Positions 30,137 to 64,000 are shown, numbered from the stretch's first letter. The stretch: DNA of 64,000 nt from an uncultured Lachnospiraceae bacterium (GCA_900315505.1 OMZG01000006.1:1-64000); one strand, 5' to 3'. Numbers and translations are program-made. The notes: generated by a model from the letters alone, not told the origin.

Positions 30137-30267
30137 GAGTGGCACATGAGTTGTGAGAGACCTTTCGAAACGCCGGCGCTTGGCGGCTGTTTTTCAAGCC
30201 GCCTATGCGTCCGTTGCGTTGAGAACAGAGCGAGAGCGTGTCTCGAGCAACTGCATGTGCCACTCTG
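30137..30267. repeat. Long inverted-repeat element, copy B
   Basis: GAGTGGCACATGAGTTG...CAACTGCATGTGCCACTC encloses an inner hairpin GGCGGCTGTTTTTCAAGCCGCC. Confidence 0.4.
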
Positions 30268-48065: not shown

Positions 48066-48114
48066 ACACAACATCTAGTGTTTTTGCAGTGAGAACACAA
48101 CTACACTTAGTTGT
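48066..48114 (+). promoter_or_regulatory. Tandem NrdR-box-like palindromes upstream of nrdD
   Basis: ACACAACATCTAGTGT and ACACAACTACACTTAGTTGT, centres ~31 bp apart. Confidence 0.5.
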
Positions 48115-48192
48115 TGCATGAATCCACAAAGAATAGGTTCCGGCGGGGTTATAGAAGAACTCATAGGAGCGAGGGAAGGAAGTTTACATTTA

Positions 48193-50514
48193 ATGGACAC
48201 AATCGTGGTAAAGACAAATGTGATCAAGCGTAACGGGCGTGAGGTCCGCTTCGACGAGCAGAAGATCATCAATGCGATCATGGCAGCAAATAAGGAGGTG
48301 GAGGGAATCCACCAGCTGAATCATGCACAGGTTCAGGCAGTAGCCGATGGCATCTCGAAGCAGGTGGCGCAGTCGCCGCATGCCGTCAATGTCGAGGATA
48401 TCCAGGATCTCGTCGAGAAGGGCATCATGGAGATGAGATGCTATGAGGTCGCGCAGAAGTACGTCAGATACAGATACAAGCGTGAGCTCTCCCGTAAGTC
48501 CAATACCACGGATAATGGAATCCTGGCCCTTATTGATCAGGTCAATGAGGAGGTAAAGCAGGAGAATTCCAACAAGAACCCGGTCATCAATTCCACACAG
48601 CGTGACTATATGGCTGGTGAGGTATCAAAGGATCTCACGAACCGTGTACTGCTTCCTGAAGAGATAGTCAGGGCACATAAAGAGGGAATCATTCATTTCC
48701 ATGATGCCGATTATTTTGCACAGAGAGAGCACAACTGCGATCTGATCAATCTTGAGGATATGCTTCAGAATGGCACGGTCATTTCGGAGACCATGATCGA
48801 GAAGCCGAAGAGCTTCTATACAGCCTGCAATATCACGACACAGATCGTGGCTCAGGTCGCATCGAATCAGTACGGCGGCCAGTCATTCTCACTGGCACAT
48901 CTGGCACCATTCGTAGATGTCTCCAGACAGAAGATCAGGAAGCAGGTCATCGAGGAGAGAAAAGAGGTCGGCGATGATCTCGATGAAGAAAAGGTCATGA
49001 AGATCGTAGACCACAGGCTTCAGTCGGAGATCGAGTCAGGTATCCAGACTATCCAGTATCAGCTGGTGACACTCATGACGACAAATGGGCAGACACCGTT
49101 TGTCACAATGTTTATCTATCTCGATGAGGTGCCGGAGGGACAGACAAGGGATGACCTCGCCCGTCTTGCGAAGGAGGTATTCAGACAGAGAATTCAGGGT
49201 ATCAAGAATGAAAAGGGAGTCTGGGTCACACCTGCATTCCCGAAGATCATCTACACGCTTGATGCGGATAATATCGAGGAAGGCACACCGTACTATGATC
49301 TGACGAAGCTCGCGGCAGAATGCACAGCCAAGAGGATGGTTCCTGATTATATCTCGGCGAAGGTCATGAGAGAGCTGAAGGGCGATGTATATACCTGCAT
49401 GGGCTGCCGTTCATTCCTCACGCCTGATAATGAAGACAACGCAGAGGGCCTCTGCAATGCTGGCAATAAGAGCGGAGCACTTGATTATAAAGAAGGCGAG
49501 CACAAGTATTACGGCCGTTTCAATCAGGGTGTCGTGACGATCAACCTCGTTGATGTGGCCTGCTCAGCAGTCAAGGAGTCCAATGAAAAGGGAACAGACA
49601 GATTTGATGAGTTCTGGAAGATATTCGATGACAGACTCGAGCTCTGTCACAGGGCACTTCAGTGCAGACACAACCGTCTGCTTGGCACATCATCTGATGT
49701 AGCTCCGATCCTCTGGCAGCATGGAGCCCTCGCCCGCCTGAAGAAGGGTGAGAAGATCGACAAGCTTCTCTTCGGCAATTATTCTACGATCAGCCTCGGA
49801 TACTGTGGTATTTCAGAGATGACATATGAGATGATGGGAGTGAGCCATACAGATCCTAAGGGCAAGGAATTCGCTCTGAAGGTTATGCAGCATCTCAATG
49901 ACAAGTGCGCCGAGTGGAGAAAGGCAGAGAAGATCAGCTATTCACTCTATGGCACTCCGATGGAGTCGACTACATATAAGTTTGCAAAGTGCCTGCAGAA
50001 GAGATTTGGTATCATCCCTCATGTGACAGACAAGAACTATATCACCAATAGCTATCATGTCCATGTGACAGAGGAGATAGATGCGTTCAAGAAGCTGAAG
50101 TTCGAGAGCGAGTTCCAGAAGCTCTCACCAGGCGGAGCAATCAGCTATGTCGAGGTACCGAATCTCCAGACCAATGTACCAGCAGTCCTTTCGATCATGA
50201 AGTACATTTATGAGAATATCATGTATGCAGAGCTCAATACCAAGAGTGACTACTGCGAGGTGTGCGGATATGACGGCGAGATCCGTATCGTAGAGGATGA
50301 TAATGGCAAGCTGGTATGGGAGTGCCCGAAGTGCGGCAACCGTGACCAGAACAAGATGAGCGTAGCCCGTCGTACCTGTGGCTACATTGGCACCCAGTTC
50401 TGGAACCAGGGCCGTACGCAGGAGATCCGTGACCGTGTCCTCCATCTCTCAATCCCAGAATTCGAAGGCACAGAAGAGATGAACGTCAACGCCTCAGTAA
50501 GATTTTTAATGTAA
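48193..50514 (+). CDS. nrdD: Anaerobic ribonucleoside-triphosphate reductase
   Basis: ATP-cone N-terminus, C-terminal Cys4 (CEVCG...CPKCG) and glycyl-radical motif RRTCGYIGT. RBS GAAGGA precedes the ATG at 48193. Confidence 0.9.
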   Translation: MDTIVVKTNVIKRNGREVRFDEQKIINAIMAANKEVEGIHQLNHAQVQAVADGISKQVAQSPHAVNVEDIQDLVEKGIMEMRCYEVAQKYVRYRYKRELSRKSNTTDNGILALIDQVNEEVKQENSNKNPVINSTQRDYMAGEVSKDLTNRVLLPEEIVRAHKEGIIHFHDADYFAQREHNCDLINLEDMLQNGTVISETMIEKPKSFYTACNITTQIVAQVASNQYGGQSFSLAHLAPFVDVSRQKIRKQVIEERKEVGDDLDEEKVMKIVDHRLQSEIESGIQTIQYQLVTLMTTNGQTPFVTMFIYLDEVPEGQTRDDLARLAKEVFRQRIQGIKNEKGVWVTPAFPKIIYTLDADNIEEGTPYYDLTKLAAECTAKRMVPDYISAKVMRELKGDVYTCMGCRSFLTPDNEDNAEGLCNAGNKSGALDYKEGEHKYYGRFNQGVVTINLVDVACSAVKESNEKGTDRFDEFWKIFDDRLELCHRALQCRHNRLLGTSSDVAPILWQHGALARLKKGEKIDKLLFGNYSTISLGYCGISEMTYEMMGVSHTDPKGKEFALKVMQHLNDKCAEWRKAEKISYSLYGTPMESTTYKFAKCLQKRFGIIPHVTDKNYITNSYHVHVTEEIDAFKKLKFESEFQKLSPGGAISYVEVPNLQTNVPAVLSIMKYIYENIMYAELNTKSDYCEVCGYDGEIRIVEDDNGKLVWECPKCGNRDQNKMSVARRTCGYIGTQFWNQGRTQEIRDRVLHLSIPEFEGTEEMNVNASVRFLM

Positions 50515-50542
50515 CAGAAAAAAATTTTTTTGAGAAAAGTAC

Positions 50543-50680
50543 AAAAACGTACAAAATAAGTCGTGTAAACTACTTTTCAAAAAAGCTGTTGTTTTCTTAA
50601 AAACGTACATTATTGTTCGTGTAAACTACTTTTATAGCTACATGGATAATGTACGAAAAACGTACATTATTTTTCTGAGA
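50543..50680. repeat. Roughly 40-nt direct repeats plus a palindrome at the island boundary
   Basis: AAAAACGTACA(A/T)..TCGTGTAAACTACTTTT occurs two to three times. TAATGTACG-AAAAA-CGTACATTA palindrome at ~50645-50668. Confidence 0.5.
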
Positions 50681-50705
50681 GTATTCTGAAAAAAGAACGA
50701 CCAAT

Positions 50706-50750
50706 CCCTAAACAGGATGGCCGTTCTTTTTATTTCGCGTATAATGATGA
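50706..50750. terminator. Bidirectional intrinsic terminator
   Basis: AAAAAAGAACGACC..GGCCGTTCTTTTT. Serves the end of the minus-strand operon. Confidence 0.5.
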
Positions 50751-50753
50751 GGG

Positions 50754-53699
50754 TCAATAATAATGCCTCAGCTTAAGTCGCCGTCCTTTACAGAATGGGC
50801 AAGGCTCTCTATGACGTTTCTGGAACATGATTCGTTTGGCAGGAGACATTGGATAATGATGCCCTTGAGAACACTCCCACCAAACTTTTTTATTATAATT
50901 CTCATTTATCTGATCAGGGTCAGCCAGCAAGGAATTGTTCAGATACAACCATTCATCCATAAGATCAGGATGTTTGATCTTAAATGAATTAAATCCCGGA
51001 AGCACCTGTCTGCCGGTGCAGTAAGGACAGTCAGCTTCGCCCGAAACCATGTCTTTGATAGAAGCACTATAGCTACCATGACAGGTAGGACATATCCATT
51101 GAACGTATCTTGGTGAGCTGGAAAGCACATCATCAGTGGATATATCGTTCTCATCAGACCACAAGGAAGCGATTTCAGGATATTTGACTTTAAGGCTGTT
51201 AAATCCCGGAAGTACCTTTCTGTCATTGCAGTAAGGACAGTCAGCTTCGCCCGAAACCATGTCTTTGATAGAAGCACCATAAGTACCATGACAGGTAGGA
51301 CAAACCCATTTAACGTACTTTGCGGAGTCAGGAAAAACATCATCAGCAGATATGTCATTTTCATCAGACCACCAAGAAGCGATATCAGGGTACCTGACTT
51401 TAAGACTGTTGAATCCGGGTAGCACCTGTCTGTCATTACAGTAAGGACATTCAGCCTTGCCAGAGACAATATCCTGAATAGTACTGCTATATTTACCGCC
51501 ACAATCGGGACAGATCCAATAAAATCTGGATGCAGCATTGTAAGATATCTTATCTGGTTCTTTATCATTATCGGGATACCACATTGAAAGATACTGAGGA
51601 TAAACATCAGCAAAACTTTCTCCGGGTTTTACCCTGATGAGGGCACAGTATGGGCAACCCGTACGACCTTTTTTTAGTGCTATTATGATGCGGGCAGTCG
51701 AGGTCTTGTATCTTTTTTTACAAGTAGGGCAGATCCATGTCATAGGTATATATGAATCGTCGTAAGTACGTATTGAAAAAATGGTTCTGCCACTGGCCTG
51801 TTCATCACACATATCAACTAGCTGGGGATACTCCTCCGCGTACGGTATATCACGACTATGACCACTGCTGCACTTTTGACAGTCTATAAAGATAAGATCA
51901 TTTTTGTCTTTACCATAACGAAAACGACTTGCTATTGTTCCCCGCCATCTGTTACCACATTTTTTACACTTATAATTTACAATCTTTGCAGAATGAACAC
52001 CCTCGGAATAGATGTCAATATCAGGATTGTTATCAAAATCGAATAATGATGAAAATTCGGGTTTTACTGTAAGGACGTCATTTACTCCTTTTACTATTAC
52101 ATTGCCGACTTCACAGCATGGACAGTTCCTTGAAATAAGACGACTCTTAGCCGTTGCCTCCCATTCACGTCCGCAAACAGGACATTTCCAGAAAAAAGTT
52201 TCTCTGCTTCCGGCTTGTATAACACGTGGATCAATTCCGGCATTTTTTTCAAAATCCCAGAATCTGAGTAAATCTGGTATGTCGTATACTGATGCGATAC
52301 TATTATTCTTTTTCTGTTTTACAGTTGAACCTTTATTTATTCCGCAGTTGGGACATCCTGCAAATGATTTCTTTGTTTTGCCTCCGGTCATGCCAAAAAA
52401 CGTACTTTGCCACGCATATCCGCAGTGGGGACATTTCCAGTCGAACAGTGGAATCTTGGAGTTATAAGAAACTGAGTATGGATCCAGGCCGGTATTCTTA
52501 TCAAAATCATAATATTTTTTTGCCTGTGGGAATATGGTGAAAATATCATTGACACCTTTTTTTACGGAATAGTCTCTTTTTTCACCGCAATGAGGGCATC
52601 GGTCTGATGCATCAAGACGCACTGCTACACTTGTTTCCCATTCGTATCCACAGTCGGGACATTTCCAGTATACCCTTTTGCTAGAATTGGATGGGGTTTT
52701 TGCCGGATCCATTGTATTATGTTCTTTATCCCAGAATTTCATGAGCTTTGGCACTTCAGAAACCTTTTCCTTGTCTTCCGGCTTTATCTTTGAGGTATCC
52801 TTATGCTGACAGGGCATAAAGCGATATGTTCCGTCTTTTTTCTTATCAACACGTCTGCTCATTGCTTTACGGAATTTGCGACCGCACACGGGGCATTTCC
52901 AATTAACGACAGTTTTGGAGCCAACACCGATTTTCTTTATATCTATCCCTTCCGAAGCATTAGCGTCAAAGTCCCACTCGTTAAGTGCATCTGGCAGTAT
53001 GGTAGATATGTCATTGTATCCTGGTGATACACCATGTCCCTGATCACAGCATGGGCATTCTGCCTTTGCCTTGTATCTGCTATATACTGGTGCAGTCCAT
53101 TTAAAATGACATCTTTTACATTTCCAATGAACCGAAGGACGTTTCATCATGACAGATGTTGTATTGATATCTATCCCTTTATTTTCGTCGAAATCCCAGA
53201 AATCGACAAGTTTTTCTACTTCTGATATCATAGGGATATCTTGTCTTTTATGAGTACAGGAAACGAACAGATATGTTCCGTCCTTTTGCTTACGAATTCT
53301 ATTTCCAATCGCCATCCGAAACTCACGATGACAGACAGGACACTTCCAGTATGCCATCTTCTTGGAGCCTACGCCTTCATTCTCCAGGTGGATGTCTTCA
53401 ACGTCATTCTTTTCTTTGTCCCATTCATCCATAATGCCAGGTACAAGCGTAACTGCATCATTATGTCCTGACCATATGACTTTTTTCTGTTCGCAGCGGG
53501 GACACTCACCCTTTGAGATATAACGGTTATAAACCGACGCTTTCCACTCATACCCACATCTCTTACATTTCCAGGAGAGGAGTGGTTTCTGTGCAAGGGC
53601 TGATGTCATATTTATATCGATTCCTTTATTTTTCTCAAAGTTCCAGAATTTTGTAATCTTTGGAACCGATGATGCCGGAATGAATTCTTTCACTTTCAT
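50754..53699 (-). CDS. 981-aa protein of about 13 tandem four-Cys zinc-ribbon modules (DUF4379-like)
   Basis: Each module reads W(K/I)CxxC(G/H)..W...(11-14 aa)..CPxC, then a linker V.xGxND..T..P....EWD...N. The C-terminal three modules are almost identical at the DNA level. Confidence 0.7.
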   Translation of the reverse strand: MKVKEFIPASSVPKITKFWNFEKNKGIDINMTSALAQKPLLSWKCKRCGYEWKASVYNRYISKGECPRCEQKKVIWSGHNDAVTLVPGIMDEWDKEKNDVEDIHLENEGVGSKKMAYWKCPVCHREFRMAIGNRIRKQKDGTYLFVSCTHKRQDIPMISEVEKLVDFWDFDENKGIDINTTSVMMKRPSVHWKCKRCHFKWTAPVYSRYKAKAECPCCDQGHGVSPGYNDISTILPDALNEWDFDANASEGIDIKKIGVGSKTVVNWKCPVCGRKFRKAMSRRVDKKKDGTYRFMPCQHKDTSKIKPEDKEKVSEVPKLMKFWDKEHNTMDPAKTPSNSSKRVYWKCPDCGYEWETSVAVRLDASDRCPHCGEKRDYSVKKGVNDIFTIFPQAKKYYDFDKNTGLDPYSVSYNSKIPLFDWKCPHCGYAWQSTFFGMTGGKTKKSFAGCPNCGINKGSTVKQKKNNSIASVYDIPDLLRFWDFEKNAGIDPRVIQAGSRETFFWKCPVCGREWEATAKSRLISRNCPCCEVGNVIVKGVNDVLTVKPEFSSLFDFDNNPDIDIYSEGVHSAKIVNYKCKKCGNRWRGTIASRFRYGKDKNDLIFIDCQKCSSGHSRDIPYAEEYPQLVDMCDEQASGRTIFSIRTYDDSYIPMTWICPTCKKRYKTSTARIIIALKKGRTGCPYCALIRVKPGESFADVYPQYLSMWYPDNDKEPDKISYNAASRFYWICPDCGGKYSSTIQDIVSGKAECPYCNDRQVLPGFNSLKVRYPDIASWWSDENDISADDVFPDSAKYVKWVCPTCHGTYGASIKDMVSGEADCPYCNDRKVLPGFNSLKVKYPEIASLWSDENDISTDDVLSSSPRYVQWICPTCHGSYSASIKDMVSGEADCPYCTGRQVLPGFNSFKIKHPDLMDEWLYLNNSLLADPDQINENYNKKVWWECSQGHHYPMSPAKRIMFQKRHREPCPFCKGRRLKLRHYY

Positions 53700-53708
53700 A
53701 TATTACCC

Positions 53709-54464
53709 TCACTCGAATTTATCGAACAATCCCTTTACTACGTTGCTTTCGATTCCTGAAGAATCGTTTGCTGTTTCATCTTCCGTCTGAGAAGTGTCTG
53801 TACTATCATCAGACGTATCTATATCAGTATCAGGTCTTATGGCCCTGGCTTCGGCTTTTTCTGCATCAATATGTGTGGACACCGTACCTTTGAGCTCACC
53901 GTCTTCCTTTAACAGCTCATTAGCCATCTCTGGATATACATTATCTTCTATGAACTTTTTCATGTACTTATTCTTTTTACGGAGTTCGGTCAACTCTGTC
54001 TTTTGTTCTACATATTTCTGCCTGAGCTCAACGTTATCCTTTTTTATCTTATCCAGCTCGGAACTCATTTTATCGTGCTCTTCAACGAGTCTGCGGTTTT
54101 CCTGCTTTATCGTAATAGCTGACTCAGAAATATTTCTGTAATGGGTATCCAGTTCCGTCAGCGATCTTCTCATTGCATCACGGGACTGGTTGTTGTCGAT
54201 AAAGGCATCCACATCGAGCGTGGTATATGTTGTGATGTTTACCGATGCTTTTTCAATATTCCCCTTCAAAGAGGAGATATAACTCCTTGCGGCCGTATTT
54301 CTGCGAAGGGTTGTAACGGAATATCCTGTGAATCCGTTATCACTTACATACTGGGCAATCTGCGGAAACCTCAGCAGAGAGCCGTTTCCATGACACACGT
54401 CGTTATAATATTTTTTTATAAGATCAAGAAGGACGTCATCCTCGATCTGCTTTTTCCTTGCCAT
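53709..54464 (-). CDS. Coiled-coil protein with acidic Ser/Thr/Asp-rich tail
   Basis: 251 aa. Central heptad region ELDKIKKDNVELRQKYVEQKTELTELRKK. 9 nt upstream of the zinc-ribbon gene. Confidence 0.5.
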   Translation of the reverse strand: MARKKQIEDDVLLDLIKKYYNDVCHGNGSLLRFPQIAQYVSDNGFTGYSVTTLRRNTAARSYISSLKGNIEKASVNITTYTTLDVDAFIDNNQSRDAMRRSLTELDTHYRNISESAITIKQENRRLVEEHDKMSSELDKIKKDNVELRQKYVEQKTELTELRKKNKYMKKFIEDNVYPEMANELLKEDGELKGTVSTHIDAEKAEARAIRPDTDIDTSDDSTDTSQTEDETANDSSGIESNVVKGLFDKFE

Positions 54465-54502
54465 ATACCGCTCCTTTCATGACTCTCATAAGTCCCTGTC
54501 TC

Positions 54503-56179
54503 TTAACTTTCCTGTGTCTTTTTCCTGTCATACATTTTTTTCTGCATGAGATAATTTCTGTAAGACGTGGAACTTTCCTGGACTTTTAACATTGCTTCTC
54601 CTATGTCTTCAACAGCACCTTTGTCGTGCCTTACTCTGTCTACGGCTTCTACAAGAGCCGTACAGTCGTCTTTAAGATCTCTTCTGTATATATCATCACC
54701 CTCGAAGAAGGAGATTGACGGTCCTCTGTAGAACCGGCATGAAAGGCAGTAACCGATTTCACCGTTCTCGCCACATGCTTTACGGCAATCCGTTATACTG
54801 CCGCTCATATATGCACTGGAATAGCATGTGCCACCATCTGCAAGTGAAACGTGCTTTTCAGCGGGAGGAAGAAGACCCTGTACAGAGATCTGATACTTTT
54901 TATCGCTGCCTATGTATTTCCTGTATTCCCTGTATGTCTGACATTCTATCATGGTTTCAAGGTTACTGTAATAATGGGCTGCCATTTCTTCATTGGTATG
55001 CCCTGCAAGGAACATTGCCGTGGCCGGAGTGCCGCCTTCCTGCATGAGATTGATAAGTGCGACATGCCTTGCATCTCCGAGACGTATCCTCTGTATCTCC
55101 TTATCTTCCAGATGTCTTGTCTCCTCGTCTGAAATGATGCGGTATCCGTATATTCCACAAATAACCTCTGAATAAAAATATCTGAGTATCGTGACCATGT
55201 TCACATATGTGAGAAAACGGCTGTTGCTGTGTTTGCCCTGCTTCCATTTTCTGTAGTGCGGATCAGTGACAAAAAGCGTATCTATATCAGTGCTGTCATA
55301 TTTATCCGTTGCTTTCAGATATCCGTTGATCTCTTCATAAAGTTTGTCCGGTATACGAAAAGTAGTAGTAAAATAATCCGCGCTGATCTTATAGGACTTT
55401 TCACGCTTGCTGCCTTTAAGCCTGTTCCTGCGAAGCGTTATATAATGCTTTCCCTTCGCATCAGTTGAGAGACAGTCCCTTGTTGTGAGAAGGAATTCCC
55501 TCGGTCGTAGAGGTATACATCCTGTCAGGTTCCACCAGATATAAAGGGGCAGGTAGAACAGTCTGTCCTCGGTATTGAGATCATGACTCCAGTAATCGTT
55601 TATGATGTCATTAAATACAGCGTATGTATCGAAAGCTGCAAGAGATCGTGAACGCGGGCCTTTTTGCTTTGCAATCCTGGTCTCCGAACAGATATCGAGC
55701 ATATCCATAATGTCATTTGTAAAATCACCTGATGTATCAGGAAGCATGGAGAAAAAGTCTGAACACTGGGCAGGTCGTGTGAGTGTATAGCCTGCCTCTT
55801 CTGTGCCTATAGCCACCGGATCGTTGGCTGTTATATGCCTGAGATCGAGTATAACATTTTCCATTGATACAAGGGCTGTCTTACTGAAGAGCGTTGTAAT
55901 ATATGATTTAACCCTTGAAACGAATTCATCGAAGGACAGATTCAGTCCCTTGGCATAGTATTCATCATACTTTTCTCTGTCAAACGAGAAATGAAGTCCG
56001 ACATTTGAATACTCATCTGTTGTGTACCATACATCATCCTCAAATGATGAGCCTTCTTTTATGACACCGGCATCCCTGAACGCGTCAAAACGCTCCCTGG
56101 CAGCCGATACTGAAGTCTGATCAAGAAGTATGAAGTTAAGTGATGAGGAGAAAAGCTCCTCTGCCGTGGAAACATTCAT
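54503..56179 (-). CDS. Tyrosine recombinase, third of trio, with C-terminal Cys-rich extension
   Basis: Catalytic residues in order: LRPREF (R), ARHVALINLM (RH), AGHTNEEMAAHYY (H..Y). Extra Cys-rich segment CxxxxC...CxxC after the catalytic domain. Confidence 0.65.
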   Translation of the reverse strand: MNVSTAEELFSSSLNFILLDQTSVSAARERFDAFRDAGVIKEGSSFEDDVWYTTDEYSNVGLHFSFDREKYDEYYAKGLNLSFDEFVSRVKSYITTLFSKTALVSMENVILDLRHITANDPVAIGTEEAGYTLTRPAQCSDFFSMLPDTSGDFTNDIMDMLDICSETRIAKQKGPRSRSLAAFDTYAVFNDIINDYWSHDLNTEDRLFYLPLYIWWNLTGCIPLRPREFLLTTRDCLSTDAKGKHYITLRRNRLKGSKREKSYKISADYFTTTFRIPDKLYEEINGYLKATDKYDSTDIDTLFVTDPHYRKWKQGKHSNSRFLTYVNMVTILRYFYSEVICGIYGYRIISDEETRHLEDKEIQRIRLGDARHVALINLMQEGGTPATAMFLAGHTNEEMAAHYYSNLETMIECQTYREYRKYIGSDKKYQISVQGLLPPAEKHVSLADGGTCYSSAYMSGSITDCRKACGENGEIGYCLSCRFYRGPSISFFEGDDIYRRDLKDDCTALVEAVDRVRHDKGAVEDIGEAMLKVQESSTSYRNYLMQKKMYDRKKTQES

Positions 56180-58089
56180 GCGACCGCCTCCTTCAGATAA
56201 TTTTCGTACTGTTCATATGTCTTTTCACCATACTGATCCTTTATGCAGGTGAGCATCTCATCCAGTTTCGGGAGAAGTATTTCCTTTGCAATGCTACCGT
56301 ATTTCTGTTTTTCAAGCGGTGATGTGGCAGCATTATACAGCTTCTGTATGCGCTTTATTTCTGATATGACGAGAAGAAACGTCGATTTTGTGCTTATTTC
56401 ATACGGACACCCCACGCACTGCCTGCTGTCAGTGTACGGACAGATCTTTCCTATTGCTGATTTAAGGCATAGTGATTCTGCCTCTTTCGAGAAGGCCTGT
56501 CCTGAGCCTATGCGGTGCAGAGCTGTAAGTATATCGGTGTCGGAACCTGAGGCCTCTCTGACGGCCAGCACGGCTCTCTGGCGGCCTTCTTCTACAAGAG
56601 AGACGACCTCATCTGTTTCTTTCGGGGAAAGATTCAGAAGATGGTGGGCCTCCGTCTGCTCTTCAACGCTTAATGTTTTATAATCTTTCCCCTCGATCAT
56701 TTCAAGGAGCATCGACGAGACAAATGAACATACACCTCTTTCCAACAGCTCATAGGCAACGAAGTCGGGTGTAAGACCATCGAATTTTGCATCTTTCAGA
56801 TATTCCATTGTCGTATTTGCAAACTCTCCGAAACTTCCTTTGTGTGAACGGGCGAGAGAAGCAAATATATATCCTTTCACGCTTGCGGCATTGGCATCAA
56901 CGTCCCCGTCTTCCCGCAGTATCTCATCAGCGTGCATATATATGGACTGAAGATATGATTTTGTGGCGGATCTGGATCTGAAATCAGATTCAAGAAACAG
57001 GTTTCCGATATCCTCTCCCATGTATCTGGTTATCTGTTCATATGTCGAGATCTTTCTTATAATAGGAGCGTCAGGGTTGCCATCAATCTGTCTGTGGGCT
57101 TCTGCAAGGGCAAATAATATCCCGAAATGTGTCTCACATGAGTGCGGCACTGTAAATTTTACATATTCGTCATGTCCCCGTCCTGATGTCTTGTTTACCG
57201 TAAGAGGTAAAAGGCATAGCCTCTGTGTGATGGAACGCAGAACACTCTGTGCGTCGTCGTCCGTAAACTCTCCGTTGCGTACTTTCCGCAATACTTCATC
57301 CGGTGGATATGGAAGATCGGGATGATATATCCGTTCAAGATCGGTCAGCCGCAGGGAGCAGATGAAGTTGATCGACAGATAAAGCCATGTATCCGTATAG
57401 TCTGTTGAATCAGCAGCTTTTGCATACATGTCGTTTTCTTCGATATAGTCCTCATTCAGCAGATAGTAGAGCAGTTCCAGATATTCATCCATTTCATAGG
57501 CTTCGTTCTGGATATCCATAGTGTATCGGTTTCCCATGACATAATCACGATTGTAATTTGTCTTCGTTCTCTGCCTGAGCCAGGAGATAAAGAAAGTGAG
57601 ATCATCTCCGAATGCCTTTGTGAGTTCATCCGCTGCTGCTTTCACAATGCTTTCCATATCAGTATCTGTATAGAACATCATCTCCCTGTCAAGATGGTAC
57701 AGGAGAAAATCGGTGATATACATTACCGATTCATCAGGAAGCTCTACGGCCTTTGCAAATTCTTCAAGATAGCGGGCAGTAGAGGGAAAACGTACAGACA
57801 GATCTCCTGAAAGAGTATCTTCGCTGAAATCCGATGATAAAAATGATGACAGATTATCCTTCAGCAGTTCTGCATCATCTTCGGATAAGGTAAAACCGCC
57901 ATCTGCATTACCGTCTTTTACCGGCTTTATCCCAAACCATCCGTTGCTTTCAAGAAAGAGCACGGTATCGTCCATTGATTTGTTATATGGATTGCTGCCG
58001 TTTAATGCCTCCGTTACGATCTTATTAAGGCTTTCCATCACCATGCCCCCTTTCGGCTGCCCACATATGATAGTCGAACAGCTCATCAT
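56176..58089 (-). CDS. Putative divergent tyrosine recombinase (Tn554 TnpB-like size), second of trio
   Basis: 637 aa. Overlaps neighbours by 4 nt and 65 nt. Candidate box-I SLRLTDLE and ARSHKGS..EY. The assignment is weak. Confidence 0.4.
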   Translation of the reverse strand: MMSCSTIICGQPKGGMVMESLNKIVTEALNGSNPYNKSMDDTVLFLESNGWFGIKPVKDGNADGGFTLSEDDAELLKDNLSSFLSSDFSEDTLSGDLSVRFPSTARYLEEFAKAVELPDESVMYITDFLLYHLDREMMFYTDTDMESIVKAAADELTKAFGDDLTFFISWLRQRTKTNYNRDYVMGNRYTMDIQNEAYEMDEYLELLYYLLNEDYIEENDMYAKAADSTDYTDTWLYLSINFICSLRLTDLERIYHPDLPYPPDEVLRKVRNGEFTDDDAQSVLRSITQRLCLLPLTVNKTSGRGHDEYVKFTVPHSCETHFGILFALAEAHRQIDGNPDAPIIRKISTYEQITRYMGEDIGNLFLESDFRSRSATKSYLQSIYMHADEILREDGDVDANAASVKGYIFASLARSHKGSFGEFANTTMEYLKDAKFDGLTPDFVAYELLERGVCSFVSSMLLEMIEGKDYKTLSVEEQTEAHHLLNLSPKETDEVVSLVEEGRQRAVLAVREASGSDTDILTALHRIGSGQAFSKEAESLCLKSAIGKICPYTDSRQCVGCPYEISTKSTFLLVISEIKRIQKLYNAATSPLEKQKYGSIAKEILLPKLDEMLTCIKDQYGEKTYEQYENYLKEAVA

Positions 58090-59389
58090 TTATCTTTGTA
58101 TATTTTCTTTCAAGCTCTCCCTTGTTTTTCAGGTATGTGAGCGAGCTGTCAGGCGAAGTGTCTCCCCTGAAATGCATGAGTGTTCCGATATCGGTAATGC
58201 CTGAAAGAACGAGCTGTACCGTGAACCAGTGTCTGAAAATATGTGGTGATATGTTATGCTCCAGTAGTATTTTCCCATATGTGACAAGTTCAGGATCATC
58301 ACTGGATAGATAGAGCGGTATCATTTCGTCTTTTATGATGTCCTGAAAACGCTGATAATATGACTTGTATGTCATCGCCATGTGTCTGCTATTGACTGTG
58401 AACGGGCCATAATCGGTCTCATATGGTATGTTGTTCATGTATTCGATGTAGATATTATATGCCTTTATAAAAGCATCACGGAAGATGTCAGGTATATCCT
58501 GCATACGCTCTTTCTTGATCTTTCCGACAGGGACGGCATCGCTCCTGAGATTGTATTCATGATTGAGATCGATACGGATCTTTGTGACTGTCAAACACTT
58601 GGTATAGCCGGTTTCGATACAGTCGATGAGAATTCCTGGTCCTAACGGACTGTCCGTGCGGCGTACATTACAGGCTTCAGACGGACGAAGACCGCAGAAT
58701 GCCGAGAGTATCACAAGTCCGAGCATGTCCTTGTGATGCTGGAGGATATGGTCGAAAAGAAGCCTAAAAGCCTTGTCCGGCATATCCCTGAATATGGCAT
58801 GGGTGCTTCCTGTATATTTCACATCAAAGACGGGAACCTGTGTATCTATGACCTTTCCATGCTTGTCACGCTTCTTGACTGTCCTGTACAGATCTTTCAC
58901 CCTGATGCTGCACCTGGTCTTTCTGTCTTCTATCAGGAGCTGTAGAAAGTCCAGAACAGATGATACGGCTCTCTCGACAGTGGCTTTGGCGCGGGATGTA
59001 TCATCGTCGTCATCAGGAAGAGTGCAGGTGCCGTAAGCATTGAGATAATCTTTTACGATATCGACTGTGAGCTTGTCAAGAGACCTGATCCCGCGTTCAA
59101 AAAATGCATAGTTAAGTAAAGGTGTGACAAATGCAAATCTGCTGTTGCCATCATCCTGTATGCTGCGTACTTTTGAATGGGTTGATCTCACATATTTGTG
59201 AAAATCTGTGAATCTGATGGTTCCGTCACTGTATTCGAGGACTATGAACTGTCGCGGTATTATAAGGTTATCCGATGTAACGTAATGGTGTTTATAAACC
59301 TTGAACCTTACCGGTACAGGCGTATCAGATATGGATATGCTGCCAGTTGTATCCATAAGCGTCTCCTCTCCGGGAGGCGGATGTATCAT
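58025..59389 (-). CDS. Tyrosine recombinase/integrase, first of trio
   Basis: GLRPSEACNV (box I Arg), HIFRHWF (HxxRH) and LTYL (Tyr). RBS AAAGGA. Confidence 0.7.
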   Translation of the reverse strand: MIHPPPGEETLMDTTGSISISDTPVPVRFKVYKHHYVTSDNLIIPRQFIVLEYSDGTIRFTDFHKYVRSTHSKVRSIQDDGNSRFAFVTPLLNYAFFERGIRSLDKLTVDIVKDYLNAYGTCTLPDDDDDTSRAKATVERAVSSVLDFLQLLIEDRKTRCSIRVKDLYRTVKKRDKHGKVIDTQVPVFDVKYTGSTHAIFRDMPDKAFRLLFDHILQHHKDMLGLVILSAFCGLRPSEACNVRRTDSPLGPGILIDCIETGYTKCLTVTKIRIDLNHEYNLRSDAVPVGKIKKERMQDIPDIFRDAFIKAYNIYIEYMNNIPYETDYGPFTVNSRHMAMTYKSYYQRFQDIIKDEMIPLYLSSDDPELVTYGKILLEHNISPHIFRHWFTVQLVLSGITDIGTLMHFRGDTSPDSSLTYLKNKGELERKYTKINDELFDYHMWAAERGHGDGKP

Positions 59390-59512
59390 CGGCAGTCCTT
59401 TGATTTAAATGATTTATGATAAATAATCCCTTGACTTATAGCAGCCAAAGTGTTATATTTACCTTAATTGAAAAGAACTTGATGATATGGGCGCCGACCC
59501 GTGTCATACTTA

Positions 59513-59557
59513 AAGCATCAGTTACCGCCAAGTAAAGCTGGTGCTTTTTTGTTGCTT
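59513..59557 (+). terminator. Possible stem-loop terminator
   Basis: AGCATCAG..CTGGTGCT followed by T6. Confidence 0.3.
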
Positions 59558-59693
59558 GTATCTCACATTATACATCTTACTTCTGAAGTTTTCAAGGTCA
59601 TTCGACAATAATATTATCTCATTTTTATCTATTGTTATTGTTTTTTATATAATATATGCTATAATGTATAGACATAGGAGGAATACCACGCTT

Positions 59694-62600
59694 ATGGCAA
59701 GGACATTCAACGAAGATACACGGGTGAAGATACCGGCAACACTCCAGTTCCTGCGGATTGGATACAACTATCAGTCAATGCAGGATTCTGATATAGATTT
59801 CGAGACAAAGATATTTGTGAACAGGTTCAGACCGGCTGTAGAAAAGATCAACGGCAGGTCATTCTCTGATGAAGAAATTGAGTTTCTGCTTACGGAAATC
59901 CGCACTCTCATAAAGAGCAATGACATGGGTCATGCCTTTTATAACAGGCTCATCAGCACCACTGATGATGTAAAGCTAGTAGACTGGGATGATATTCAGA
60001 AGAATGACTTCGCTGTCGTTGATGAGCTTCCATTTACCGTAGAAAAAGGCACAGAAGAAGGCTCTTTCAGACCTGATATCAACATACTGATCAATGGGAT
60101 GCCGTTGGCCTTTCTTGAAGTCAAAAAGCCTAATAATGAAGGCACCATTCAGGCAGAGTTTGACCGTATGCTCAACAGAAGGCTTTCAAATAATGCTTAT
60201 CGAAAGTTCTTCAATCTCATACAGTTCGTATCCTTTTCCAATAATATGGAGTATGAGAACAGTGATGCAGATGCCGTAGAGCTTGTAAAGGCAGGTTCTT
60301 TCTATACGACCCCGAACGGCCAGCAGACCAGCTTCTCTTTCTTCCGTGAGGACGAAAAAGGATATATAGAGGGGTATCAATATACATCATTAAGTGATGA
60401 CCTATGCAGGAAGGTAATAAAGGATCTCGGTTATAACCCGGCTGTATTTGACACAGATGAATTTCAGACTGCAAATGTTACAGATTCTCCATGTAACCGC
60501 TTCATCACATCAATGTATGATAAGGAGCGGTTCCTTTTCATACTGAAATACGGGATACTATATATAAAAGGCAGGATACCGGAAAAGCATATCATGAGGT
60601 ATCCACAATTCTTTGCTACCAGAGCCATTATAAAAAGACTTGAAAGCGGCGGTAAGCGTGGTATCATATGGCATACACAGGGTTCGGGAAAGACGGAGCT
60701 TGCCTGCTATGCAAACAGGATAATACGGGATTACTATGCAAAGAAGAATGTCGTAACACGTTTCTTCTTTGTGGTAGACCGCCTTGAACTGCTAAGACAA
60801 GACAACAGTGAATTTTCATCAAGGCATTTTTCTGTCACTAACTGCACCAAGAAGTCCGGTTCGGGCGGCTTTGACGAAGAGCTTGCCCGCACGATGCCTG
60901 TCATAAAGTCCGACGACATTGGTGAATTCGTTGTCGTGAACATCCAGAAGTTTGAAGATGCCATTCCTAAAGCCAGAAACGAGTATGATACCAATGTGCA
61001 GAGGATATTCTTCATAGACGAGGCACACCGTTCATACAAGATGAACGGGCAGTATTTCAAGAACCTTATTCTCTGTGACAGAAACGCTGTATTCATCGCC
61101 CTTACGGGGACACCGCTGCTGACAAAGAAAGAGCGCAGCAATCTGAAGTTCGGTGACTACATACATAAGTATTTTTATGACAAGAGCATCGCTGACGGCT
61201 ATACACTCCGAATCAAGAAGGAAAAGATCAAGTCAGTAGTAAAGAAGGATATCAAGGAAGATCTCGAGCTGCAGTCAGATGAAATAGACTTTGATTCCGC
61301 AACCGTGTACGAATCTGATGCCTTTGTAGGCTCTCTCTGCAAGTATATAGAAAAGGACTTCAAGAATTTCCGTATCACGAATGGCGACCAGTCAATAGGC
61401 GGTATGGTCGTCTGCAAGTCAAATGAACAGGCAAAAAAAATCTGCCAGTGGTTTGTTGAAAACAGCAGACTTTCGGCAGGCCTTGTTATTTCTGACAGCG
61501 ATCCGAAGCAGGATGAGATAAACAAGAACAACCAGCTTGACTTTAAAAACGAGGGTCATCCTGATCTGCTCATAGTCCATTATATGCTTACGACAGGATA
61601 TGATGTAAAGCGCCTGAAGAAAATGTACCTGCTTCGTGGGCCGCATGCTCAGAACCTGCTCCAGACCATAAGCCGTGTCAACAGGCCGTACAAAGCTCCG
61701 AACGGAAAGATATACAAGTTCGGTTATATCACCGATTTTGTGGATATAGACAAAGAGTATGACCGTACTGTTGATGACTACCTCAAAGAACTCGAGAAGG
61801 ATATAAATAACGAGGATGACGATGAGGAAGGACACAACAGCCTTAGCGGACTTCTGGTAGACGTTGACAACATAAGTAGGACATATGAACAGGCGAAGTC
61901 TGAGTTTGAAAAGATAGCTCCGTCTGAAGATCTTGAACAGTTCAGCAGTAATCTTACAATGTTCAACAAAGACACTCTCCACCGCATTAAACGGCTTCTG
62001 AACACTATGCAGGACTGTTATGTGGAGTTCCTTCTGTCTCAGGCAGACGAGCTTGCAGATAAGGTTGATATCGATTTGATAAAGAGAAAAATCCGGTCTG
62101 TACAGGAACGTATAGATTTTGTAAATCTTAAGGAACAACCTGTGGAGATGATGGATATCATTTCTGACAAGGAAATTGTAGAGATATTCTATGAGTTTCT
62201 GAAGACATCTGTCGATATTATAGACCTGTCAAAGTACACCGATGGAGATGAAAGCGGCTCATATAAGAAATTTACTGAGACGATGAAAAAAGTACAGTCT
62301 GAGATAAAGAAGAACCGCAACAAGGATGACATAAGGATAATACATCTAAATGAACTTCTGAAGCAGCTATTCAACAATCTTGATATAACAGACGTGTCTG
62401 ATCTCGATAGCCTTTCTGAGAAGATGAAGAAGATTCTCGAAGAAGCAGAAGCTATAAACCGAGAGAATGACCGGCTGGCTGCTATATATGACGATAATTT
62501 TGCTATGGTCAAGAGTTATCAGGATGCTGTAGCCAAACGTCCGGACCTTGATAATAAGGACATCGAGCAGATGATGCTTGCTATTTATGCTGAGATCAAA

Positions 62601-62777
62601 GATGTCATAGGCATTGATACCCTAGCCATCCAGGGACGGGAAGGTTTTATAGATGAGACAAAGAAGAAAGTAATAAAGAAGCTCCTGAAGTCCGGTTTGT
62701 ACCAGAAACTGCAGCTTAAAGACTGGATAGATCCGCTTCTTTCTGAGATGTATACAAACTTACAGAACTTTAATTAA
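59694..62777 (+). CDS. hsdR: Type I restriction enzyme R subunit
   Basis: HSDR_N PD-(D/E)XK (FLEVKKP), helicase Walker A (QGSGKTE) and DEAH (FFIDEAHRS). RBS AGGAGGA precedes the ATG at 59694. Confidence 0.9.
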   Translation: MARTFNEDTRVKIPATLQFLRIGYNYQSMQDSDIDFETKIFVNRFRPAVEKINGRSFSDEEIEFLLTEIRTLIKSNDMGHAFYNRLISTTDDVKLVDWDDIQKNDFAVVDELPFTVEKGTEEGSFRPDINILINGMPLAFLEVKKPNNEGTIQAEFDRMLNRRLSNNAYRKFFNLIQFVSFSNNMEYENSDADAVELVKAGSFYTTPNGQQTSFSFFREDEKGYIEGYQYTSLSDDLCRKVIKDLGYNPAVFDTDEFQTANVTDSPCNRFITSMYDKERFLFILKYGILYIKGRIPEKHIMRYPQFFATRAIIKRLESGGKRGIIWHTQGSGKTELACYANRIIRDYYAKKNVVTRFFFVVDRLELLRQDNSEFSSRHFSVTNCTKKSGSGGFDEELARTMPVIKSDDIGEFVVVNIQKFEDAIPKARNEYDTNVQRIFFIDEAHRSYKMNGQYFKNLILCDRNAVFIALTGTPLLTKKERSNLKFGDYIHKYFYDKSIADGYTLRIKKEKIKSVVKKDIKEDLELQSDEIDFDSATVYESDAFVGSLCKYIEKDFKNFRITNGDQSIGGMVVCKSNEQAKKICQWFVENSRLSAGLVISDSDPKQDEINKNNQLDFKNEGHPDLLIVHYMLTTGYDVKRLKKMYLLRGPHAQNLLQTISRVNRPYKAPNGKIYKFGYITDFVDIDKEYDRTVDDYLKELEKDINNEDDDEEGHNSLSGLLVDVDNISRTYEQAKSEFEKIAPSEDLEQFSSNLTMFNKDTLHRIKRLLNTMQDCYVEFLLSQADELADKVDIDLIKRKIRSVQERIDFVNLKEQPVEMMDIISDKEIVEIFYEFLKTSVDIIDLSKYTDGDESGSYKKFTETMKKVQSEIKKNRNKDDIRIIHLNELLKQLFNNLDITDVSDLDSLSEKMKKILEEAEAINRENDRLAAIYDDNFAMVKSYQDAVAKRPDLDNKDIEQMMLAIYAEIKDVIGIDTLAIQGREGFIDETKKKVIKKLLKSGLYQKLQLKDWIDPLLSEMYTNLQNFN

Positions 62778-62788
62778 GGAAACAAAAC

Positions 62789-63010
62789 ATGAGAAGGGTT
62801 ATATGCTATGGGCCTTTAGGAGAAACAACTATTTATAATAGCATTGCAGAGGCAGCAAGAAAACTCAATGCATCAGCATCCAGTATAGAGGAAAGTTGTC
62901 GTAGACCAAAATACAGTTACAATGTATATGGCGACTCATGGTCTGATACTCTTAACGAAATGAGTCGATATGCATACAATTTCCAGTATTACGATGGTAA
63001 AGGAGAATGA
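62789..63010 (+). CDS. Small hypothetical protein, possibly a DNA-binding HTH protein
   Basis: 73 aa. The ..SIAEAARKL..S.SSI pattern resembles NUMOD/HTH modules. Confidence 0.35.
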   Translation: MRRVICYGPLGETTIYNSIAEAARKLNASASSIEESCRRPKYSYNVYGDSWSDTLNEMSRYAYNFQYYDGKGE

Positions 63011-63011
63011 A

Positions 63012-64000
63012 AATGCCAGATTATTATGATCTTGAAACAAAGATTGAGCAAATGATAGATGAGCTTCAGGGACTGTGCAGTACAAACGGACTATCAAATA
63101 CTGCTTCTGAGGAAGTCGTAGTTACCTCAGTATTCCTTTATAAATTCCTTAATGACAAGTTCATGTACAATCTGCGGAAGTTTGCCGAAGAGATGGAAGT
63201 TGGTCCTGAGGAAGTGCTTGCCAACAAGAACAGCTATCTGGACGGTTTCTATGATGCATACCCACAGGATGTAGCTTTCAGAAAAGAAGATACCATAGAA
63301 GAACTTTCAAACCAGTCGCTTAAGCCTGGATTTGGAAAGATATTCGACGATACCCTTGAAAGGATATCAAACTATCCATCGAATGAGAAATTCAAGGTAG
63401 AGACAGATGAAGGTACAAAGGAGCCTCTGTTTACACGTATCACCGAGACGGTTGAAAAGGGTAAGCGTGATGCCTTCGCACAGAACATTTTCTCAATAAT
63501 TACCAGGGACAAGTTCGACTTCTCACCTGCATACTCTACGAATTTCGACTTCTATTCTAGCATTTTTGAGCACTTGATAAAGAACTACAATGTGGCAAGC
63601 GGCACTTATGCCGAGTATTTTACGCCACAGGCGGTTTCTTCCATTATCAGCAAGTGTCTGGTACATATATCTGACATCGATGACAATAAGCTGTATGACA
63701 TATACGATGCAGCGGCAGGCAGTGGTTCCCTTGTTCTGCACCTGGCTAACGAGCTAGGAAAAGGCAAGTTCGGAAACAAGGCAAGAATATATACCCAGGA
63801 TATATCACAGAAGTCATCACGATTCCTTCGTATAAACATGATGCTGAATGGGCTTACAGAGTCTCTTGGCAATATTGTCCGCGGTGACACTCTGCTCACT
63901 CCAGCTCAGTATAATGTAAAAGGTGACCCTGCGTCAGGATACAGAAAGTTCGACTTCGCAACAATAAATCCGCCTTTCAAAATGGATTTCTCATCATCAC
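63012..64000 (+). CDS. hsdM: Type I restriction-modification N6-adenine methyltransferase M subunit, partial (runs off window)
   Basis: AEYFTPQAV, DAAAGSGSL (motif I) and NPPF (motif IV). No stop before 64000. Confidence 0.85.

Follow-up and report, generated by a model that had tools for sequence, protein, structure and literature searches.

Tn554, the GInts and SEs (strand-biased circularizing integrative elements) move resistance and defence genes, and the DNA sites on which they act are poorly defined. They make up a super-group with a matching module organisation (PMC5385486; PMC10214605). GInts carry a four-gene operon for three recombinase-like proteins and a small protein, placed at the extreme 5′ end of the element next to attL; the third protein is non-catalytic, the element is flanked by 10–17-nt imperfect direct repeats, and some GInts adjoin the end of a ribonucleotide-reductase gene that is duplicated (PMC5385486). 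SEs, which have been found only in Gammaproteobacteria, have the gene order intA-tfp-intB-srap, that is, a recombinase, a recombinase-fold protein without HMM matches, a large recombinase and, last, a small protein; the operon lies at the left end, and the elements have terminal inverted repeats, imperfect and 13–19 bp long, with a spacer or footprint of 6 bp (PMC10214605). The Tn554 family (tnpA, tnpB and tnpC) inserts site-specifically in Firmicutes hosts (PMC12486829; PMC10214605), and a Tn554-like staphylococcal transposon, ‘Tn552-II’, carries a ‘target-gene-like’ (tgl) copy of the gene that it enters (PMC12486829).

Here we describe a 19.3-kb island with a comparable module, inserted between nrdD and nrdG in an uncultured bacterium. 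The window, by which we mean the whole stretch of 64,000 nucleotides analysed, contains nrdD (48118–50514, plus strand; Pfam NRDD/ATP-cone/Gly_radical), which encodes an anaerobic ribonucleotide reductase whose protein sequence places the host in the Lachnospiraceae, near ‘Candidatus Weimeria’. A preliminary description of the window had pointed to direct repeats and a palindrome immediately downstream of nrdD. On balance, we favour the view that these repeats are subterminal recombinase-binding (arm-type) sites of the island.

Results

Repeats and a perfect palindrome follow nrdD

The spacer downstream of nrdD occupies window positions 50515–50753 and ends at a convergent gene for a 981-aa protein. 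All elements of the motif pair reported in the preliminary description, twice in full and once in part, could be located here, although 7 nt separate the half-motifs, rather than 8–10 nt. The sequence AAAAACGTACA occurs three times, at 50543, 50599 and 50656, with start-to-start distances of 56 and 57 nt; when one mismatch was allowed, a scan of the window returned six matches against 0.48 expected, a number equalled in none of 100 shuffles. The second half-motif, TCGTGTAAACTACTTTT, is present at 50561 and 50617, where the same kind of scan predicts 0.05 copies. Both are confined within the window to this one spot, well over chance. Together they lie in two 35-nt plus-strand units that are 86% identical, the first at 50543–50577 (AAAAACGTACAAAATAAGTCGTGTAAACTACTTTT) and the second at 50599–50633; a third copy is partial. 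Common to the repeats is a 10-mer, CGTACATTAT, which is exact in the second unit (50604–50613) and degenerate in the first (CGTACAAAAT, 50548–50557).

The same 10-mer makes up both arms of a perfect palindrome at 50646–50670, ATAATGTACG-AAAAA-CGTACATTAT, which thus consists of two exact motif copies in inverted orientation, one on the minus strand (50646–50655) and one on the plus strand (50661–50670). The palindrome of the preliminary description is therefore real, but its arms are 10+10 bp around a 5-bp spacer and not 9+9. Its left arm has a second possible pairing partner in the CGTACATTAT copy at 50604–50613, and the sequence TTTTTCT follows directly 3′ of it in the window. All of the repeats fall inside an AT-rich plus-strand block of 160 nt (50511–50670) that is identical in all island strains and has sharp edges, beginning GTAACAG... 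on the left and finishing ...CGTACATTAT on the right. The GC content of 50503–50689 is 26%. Beyond the block lies a hairpin (50690–50731; AAAAAGAACGACCA ... TGGCCGTTCTTTTT, 93% complementary) that contains GC and has A and T runs on either side; minimum-free-energy folding of either strand includes it, and a simple terminator scan passed it over. It is a probable bidirectional terminator, serving nrdD read-through and the convergent island operon.

Several known classes of repeat were considered for this spacer. A CRISPR array was rejected: the 35-nt repeats number only two or three, their identity is 86%, and the spacers are 21–22 nt long. For a dif/Xer site the similarity was limited to the 8-mer TGTAAACT, which resembles the B. 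subtilis dif XerD arm; there is no inner palindrome. An Rfam scan of 49500–51500 gave noise, with the best matches far under gathering scores, and no NrdR box was found in 50515–50753 at up to three mismatches. The sole match to the 16-bp palindromic consensus ACACWATATWTWGTGT at that threshold in the window is a palindrome, ACACAACATCTAGTGT, at 48066–48081, which precedes the nrdD start codon by about 40 nt and is probably the native NrdR operator.

The repeats mark one end of an island between nrdD and nrdG

Island-free strains of the same species (L085–L089) have an nrdD that is 99% identical and the same thiamine genes upstream, and in these strains nrdG begins 189 bp after nrdD and is followed by His_Phos_1, polysaccharide deacetylase and GGDEF/EAL genes and by nadABC. 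In relatives at 93–95% identity the gap between nrdD and nrdG is just 13–14 bp. The remainder of the window's own contig was available as L096, in which positions equal window positions minus 49663. L085 aligns with the window at 97.5–97.9% identity up to 50500, where the alignment ends, and homology restarts at contig-equivalent 69800, 5 nt ahead of the nrdG start codon; an insertion of 19.3 kb is therefore indicated. The island spans window position 50501 to contig-equivalent ~69,799 (L096 20136), so that its right end lies ~5.8 kb past the end of the window, directly ahead of nrdG. Mapping empty sites in relatives, as had been suggested, thus confirmed that the repeats sit exactly at the border of core and island DNA, and moved the opposite boundary, which had been placed at 59390–59700 or beyond hsdM, to the nrdG side.

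The left junction (50500–50503) reads CAGTAAAG|TTTTAATGTAACAG in other island strains. The insertion alters the final codons of nrdD, from ...NASVK* in island-free strains to ...NASVRFLM* in the window; among proteins that are 99–100% identical the C-terminal variants are VK, VKF, VRF and VRFLM, and the island strains have VKF*, VRF* or VRFLM*. The native nrdD–nrdG spacer of the island-free strains is replaced by the island, not merely split. Presence in some strains and absence from L085–L089, precise boundaries and a single chromosomal site make this, by operational criteria, a site-specific integrative island. Its GC content is 41%, compared with 48–49% in the flanks, and falls to 26% and 29% in the two end regions.

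From the left, the island consists of the repeat block, the gene for the 981-aa protein, minus-strand genes for proteins of 251, 558, 637 and 454 aa, hsdR, a gene for a 73-aa NUMOD1 protein, hsdM, hsdS, genes for a 60-aa RHH protein and a 232-aa serine recombinase, a PIF1/RecD-like helicase gene, a second copy of nrdG (nrdG′, 176 aa), a 336-bp AT-rich spacer and then native nrdG. No conjugation genes were found in it. The cargo includes the 981-aa protein (50754–53699, minus strand), which has 13 DUF4379 treble-clef zinc-finger repeats by Pfam, HNH-endonuclease-like PHROG matches and no PADLOC match, and whose gene contains internal tandem DNA repeats of 210 nt. It also includes the type I restriction subunit HsdR (59664–62777, plus strand; 1037 aa; Pfam HSDR_N/SWI2_SNF2/ResIII); hsdM starts at 63007 on the plus strand and runs past the window end at 64000, where the island continues.

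The nrdG′ gene (L096 19272–19802, contig-equivalent 68935–69465) lies 340 bp upstream of native nrdG. Its protein shares 80.6% identity with the product of native nrdG and 82% with that of a sister lineage; the island evidently adjoined nrdG in a different host previously. Every island copy recovered belongs to a single species, so the case for mobility of the whole island between hosts is made by the block and nrdG′ only.

Several further observations concern individual strains. The helicase gene carries an interrupting IS66-family insertion in L104, L105 and L110 and is truncated at the contig end in L108, all four being island copies of other samples; these disruptions show that the right half of the island is still decaying. 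The ends of the L104 and L109 contigs and a scaffold gap in L106 fall within ~40 nt of the last motif copy at the right end, which could reflect strain heterogeneity there. In L112 (1–2020) a Maf-domain gene replaces the thiamine genes upstream of an nrdD that is otherwise 99% identical, by either rearrangement or assembly chimera. The nrdD–nrdG spacer of the island-free strains is itself occupied by a palindromic MITE-like element (GGGTGAAAGACACATG...CATGTGTCTTTCACCCC; L085 12417–12555), of which a copy 88–89% identical lies at window 30143–30259; two different insertions have therefore struck this spacer independently. The gap is not a general island hotspot in other species, where larger nrdD–nrdG gaps contain ordinary genes. 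A nested 9-kb element ending at 59390–59663, where GTTAC is followed by the nrdD-terminus-like sequence CGCCAAGTAAAG, was also rejected (p=0.15 against shuffles, with higher scores elsewhere on the contig).

A 10-bp motif is restricted to the two island ends

The 77-kb composite contig contains seven exact copies of CGTACATTAT, against 0.19 expected, and all seven fall within two windows of at most 340 bp, one at each island end. An exact search located those of the left end at 50604 (plus), 50646 (minus) and 50661 (plus) and those of the spacer between nrdG′ and nrdG at 69602 (plus), 69688 (minus), 69710 (plus) and 69771 (minus). With the near-copies at 50548, 69524, 69649 and 69670, the left end has four motifs (one degenerate, three exact) and the right end seven (four exact, three near-exact). 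The proposal that the other boundary be searched for the same motifs thus gave a positive answer at the true right end, and the scan of 59390–59663, within the interval 59390–59700 originally named, gave nothing similar. In an unbiased count over the 23-kb locus this motif came out as the 9-mer with the most copies, and in ~100 other loci there are just two exact copies. Most copies follow an A or T run, the outermost copies at either end point inward, and the right-end cluster is kept in all island-bearing contigs. The inverted pairs have spacers of 5 and 12 bp and measure 25 and 32 bp overall.

The island encodes a putative four-gene recombinase module

The four minus-strand genes of 53709–59389 overlap, are co-oriented and follow the order ordinary recombinase, large middle protein, large recombinase, small protein. 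Pfam at default thresholds returned nothing for any of them. The first encodes a tyrosine recombinase/integrase of 454 aa (58025–59389) with the motifs GLRPSE...HIFRHW...HFRGD...LTY, read by eye, and matches to phrog_1 integrase (E=4e-11), phrog_216 (E=2e-7) and an XerA-type NCBIfam model (E=1e-4); tblastn matched it to the ‘site-specific integrase’ of B. cereus pE33L54. The 558-aa large tyrosine recombinase (54503–56179; LRPREF...ARHVA...GHT...HYY) has weak matches to Pfam Phage_integrase over its catalytic end (E=0.015) and to phrog_1 (E=0.024), and aligns with an annotated tyrosine recombinase of pE33L54 at 28% identity (E=2e-24), with the R, RH, GH and Y residues in register.

Between these two lies the gene for a 637-aa protein (56176–58089; LRLTDL...RSRSAT...RSH...EY). 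It gave no HMM match, and an AlphaFold2 single-sequence model was unusable (mean pLDDT 39); it is homologous to the second module gene, also situated between two recombinases, of Paenibacillus and B. cereus plasmids, with the R..R..H..Y residues aligned, and so probably has a tyrosine-recombinase fold. The fourth gene encodes a 251-aa coiled-coil protein (53709–54464) that corresponds by position to GinD/Srap/TnpC; it has no significant family matches and is not significantly similar to the fourth module gene on pE33L54. PADLOC gave no defence-system match for the module proteins, only a weak SduA/DUF4263 match for the 251-aa protein. A matching module is present beside YolD-like genes on two Bacillota plasmids, B. 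cereus pE33L54 and Paenibacillus pAZOPL1. On this evidence the island encodes a conserved, previously unrecognised four-gene module of the Tn554/SE/GInt-like kind, three divergent tyrosine-recombinase-like proteins and a small protein, and the R..HxxR..H/W..Y residues of an element-encoded tyrosine recombinase can be read in its sequences. The reading of the repeats as recombinase sites in the preliminary description is supported to the extent that recombinases are encoded in the island. The operon lies well inside the island, with 3.2 kb between it and the left end and 10.4 kb between it and the right.

The island also encodes two other proteins that could act on repeated sites, the 232-aa serine recombinase, which is of the resolvase/invertase type with gamma-delta resolvase as its best solved relative, and the 60-aa RHH protein. 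Every contig with an identical serine recombinase protein also bears the same island, and no close relatives of it were found in viral contigs. We consider it decidedly unlikely that the motifs are sites of the serine recombinase (res or inversion type) or operators or centromere-like sites of the RHH protein. The inverted pairs of 25 and 32 bp do recall res subsites, but res sites normally adjoin the resolvase gene, whereas no motif copy comes closer to these genes than 2.3 kb, the distance of the nearer cluster, and the other cluster is 16 kb away. An odd centre makes the 25-bp palindrome ill-suited to a 2-bp staggered cut, and island insertion is not a normal activity of resolvases.

The repeat block is shared across genera

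A single scan of JGI metagenomes (241 million records) yielded one additional informative locus, L082, in which 155 of 160 positions are identical to window 50511–50670 (97%), while its nrdD is 71% identical at the DNA level. The block begins right at the end of nrdD and similarity ceases exactly at 50670, after the right arm of the palindrome; the gene neighbourhood is unlike that of the window, and the TCGTGTAAACTACTTTT half-motif is already mutated. L113, a relative of L082 at 96% protein identity, has the first 103 nt of the block only, stopping exactly after the CGTACATTAT copy equivalent to 50604–50613; past this point its DNA is homologous to sequence farther downstream in L082. Both loci carry the block after nrdD without the island. 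In the three genetic backgrounds the exact CGTACATTAT copies are invariant and adjacent bases vary.

The block was not found in the other genomes compared. It is absent from the island-free conspecifics, from the relatives at 93–95% and from a 79% relative of L082; exact, blastn-short and nhmmer searches found none in 80 species-representative nrdD loci, and the intergenic region had no match in phage and plasmid collections (blastn) or in viral contigs (three exact-pattern scans). Other short direct repeats (ATGTTCGAGCRAAAAAACG, twice) directly follow nrdD at L117 4517–4580, in the P0244 lineage, and their homology with the block was rejected as not significant (p=0.14). Another nrdD homologue, P0245 (1050 aa), has an insert of ~300 aa after the conserved HEHNC motif, which is probably an intein.

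The block is thus sporadic, near-identical across genera and always at the nrdD terminus, with observed right edges that fall where a motif copy has its 3′ edge, and a vertically inherited regulatory region does not fit this distribution. Rather, it has been shared horizontally, with breakpoints at motif edges, and it fits a mobile piece of DNA in which the motif edges are either recombination-prone or mark module boundaries.

The preliminary description had held that finding the same repeats after nrdD in genomes lacking the island would make them a native regulatory region. Formally, L082 and L113 are such genomes. It is nevertheless highly improbable that the block is a native cis-regulatory or 3′-UTR element of nrdD, whether terminator, attenuator or small RNA, because its 97% conservation is far above the 71% of nrdD, because it is absent from closer relatives, including the island-free conspecifics in which nrdD abuts nrdG, and because similarity ends at motif edges. 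Its position, after the nrdD stop codon and before the strong hairpin (50690–50731), would suit a regulatory element, and the palindrome and T run could terminate transcription, with two pairing partners open to the left arm; the fold z-score of −4.5 derives mostly from the two hairpins, L082 lacks the T run that follows the palindrome, and Rfam returned no match.

The occurrence of the block without the island in L082 and L113, its sharp edges on both sides in three contexts and its 97% identity across genera would also be expected of a small non-autonomous (MITE-like) element that targets the nrdD end independently of the island. We regard this as very unlikely. Such elements have dispersed copies and matching autonomous ends, and the block is present in single copy per contig, the window included, was seen after nrdD only, and turned up at one extra locus in the 241 million records; it has neither terminal inverted repeats nor target duplication, and the right-end cluster would be left unexplained. 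An IS200/IS605-derived origin was rejected, as the insertion sequence near the block in L082 ends in GC-rich hairpins that bear no relation to it, was inserted later and does not occur in L113.

Persistence without the island raises the further thought that the block might be a relic in L082 and L113. More generally, it could be hitch-hiking DNA, a flank or scar from the nrdD locus of a former host that has no role, in which case the likeness of the two ends would reflect shared ancestry of decayed ends. The island does carry a host-derived flank, nrdG′, at 80.6–82% identity to native nrdG genes, and the already mutated TCGTGTAAACTACTTTT half-motif of L082 points the same way. Against this, the exact CGTACATTAT copies have stayed invariant in three backgrounds as their neighbours changed, the seven copies at the far end go unexplained, and the lineage nearest L082 is without the block, so that we think the relic explanation unlikely.

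Discussion

We propose that the nrdD-proximal repeats form the terminal arm of a 19.3-kb integrative defence island, and that the functional unit would be the 10-bp motif CGTACATTAT, usually placed after an A or T run. Repeated sites of this kind may recruit and organise a recombination complex at each end, the likeliest binders being the proteins of the island's own module (454, 637, 558 and 251 aa), and strand exchange would take place near the extreme ends of the island. The sequence TTTAAT, present at both junctions, is a candidate core, with GTTAC beside the right end and GTAAC beside the left. The junction repeats are weak: TAATGTAACAGAAAAAA resembles TAATGTACGAAAAAA with p=0.046 for the direct comparison, and the inverted similarity of the two ends covers ~10 bp (p=0.21). 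If TTTAAT is the core, the empty site may be rebuilt as ...GTAAAGTTTTAATAACATG..., with nrdD ending VKF* just before nrdG; the predicted circular (attP) joint is ...GGAATAATGTACGAAAAAATGTAGTTACTTTAAT|GTAACAGAAAAAAATTTTTTTGAG... and the predicted restored site ...AACGCCTCAGTAAAGTTTTAATAACATGAACTACGG.... The palindrome would be a pair of inverted arm sites, and may also aid termination of the nrdD transcript in the window.

The suggestion in the preliminary description of recombinase arm or core binding sites, or att sites, is strengthened by the location of the boundary, the recurrence of the motif at the far end and the presence of recombinase genes. The choice of arm over core type and the identity of the binder are matters that we infer, as are excision and integration of the island through these ends and the place of strand exchange.

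An array of repeats at the end of a mobile island is a fairly ordinary kind of feature, which is here unusually well delimited. The locus supplies compact candidate binding sites with clear limits, a natural empty site and two natural truncation products, and would open end recognition by multi-recombinase elements to direct test in a Firmicute of the gut or rumen. The recombinase module is missed by current Pfam models, and the family of the large recombinase alone comprises 829 clusters at 50% identity. The locus also illustrates how the essential nrdDG operon tolerates an island, as the element brings its own nrdG. A more speculative possibility, which we offer tentatively, is that the island represents a Firmicutes element of the Tn554/SE/GInt group with a new end architecture, in which 10-bp arrays on both arms, an internal operon and a spare copy of the displaced gene are combined with motif edges that serve as secondary points of strand exchange. 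If so, exchange at motif edges would yield truncated ‘scars’ of 103 or 160 nt and swap cargo between genera.

The arm-type sites of lambda-like integrases and the multiple end sites of Tn7 and Mu organise a recombination complex. The island resembles these systems in that a short motif recurs several times, facing either way, within 200–300 bp of the ends and apart from the core. The likeness is one of architecture, since neither a lambda-type integrase with a recognisable arm-binding domain nor a DDE transposase was found in the island.

Closer counterparts are the elements with which we began. Like the Tn554 family (tnpA, tnpB, tnpC; PMC12486829; PMC10214605), the island has a Firmicutes host, inserts site-specifically, lacks obvious long terminal repeats and carries a diverged copy of a target-adjacent gene, nrdG′ here and tgl there. 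Unlike Tn554, it has the extra 637-aa middle protein, an operon that is internal rather than at the left end, a length of 19 kb and defence cargo, and its ends carry the arrays of the 10-bp motif, which are not described in PMC12486829 or PMC10214605. The 6–7-bp att/i-att pair of Tn554 is not established in the island, and the likeness described here is one of layout.

With SEs the island shares the gene order, in which its 454-, 637-, 558- and 251-aa proteins take the places of intA, tfp, intB and srap, as well as the small number of insertion sites and the lack of conjugation genes (PMC10214605). It differs in its Lachnospiraceae host, in ends that show only the GTAAC/GTTAC pair (p=0.21), and in a middle protein that appears to retain the R..R..H..Y residues; here too the likeness is one of layout. 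GInts (PMC5385486), which have also been reported in Firmicutes, resemble the island in their four-gene operon, in variable cargo that often includes restriction-modification systems, in insertion at a gene end, in the duplicated ribonucleotide-reductase gene beside some of them and in a short AT-rich operon-distal end with conserved stretches, which corresponds to the 26% GC of 50503–50689. The GInt operon is at the extreme 5′ end next to attL, whereas that of the island (53709–59389) is internal to ends at 50501 and ~69799, with no sign of a junction at 59390–59663, and neither a non-catalytic third protein nor flanking 10–17-nt imperfect direct repeats are demonstrable. As the operon is not at the element end and terminal repeats are not demonstrable, we file the island under none of GInt, SE or Tn554; by analogy of its layout and module, it would nonetheless work in the manner of the elements of this group.
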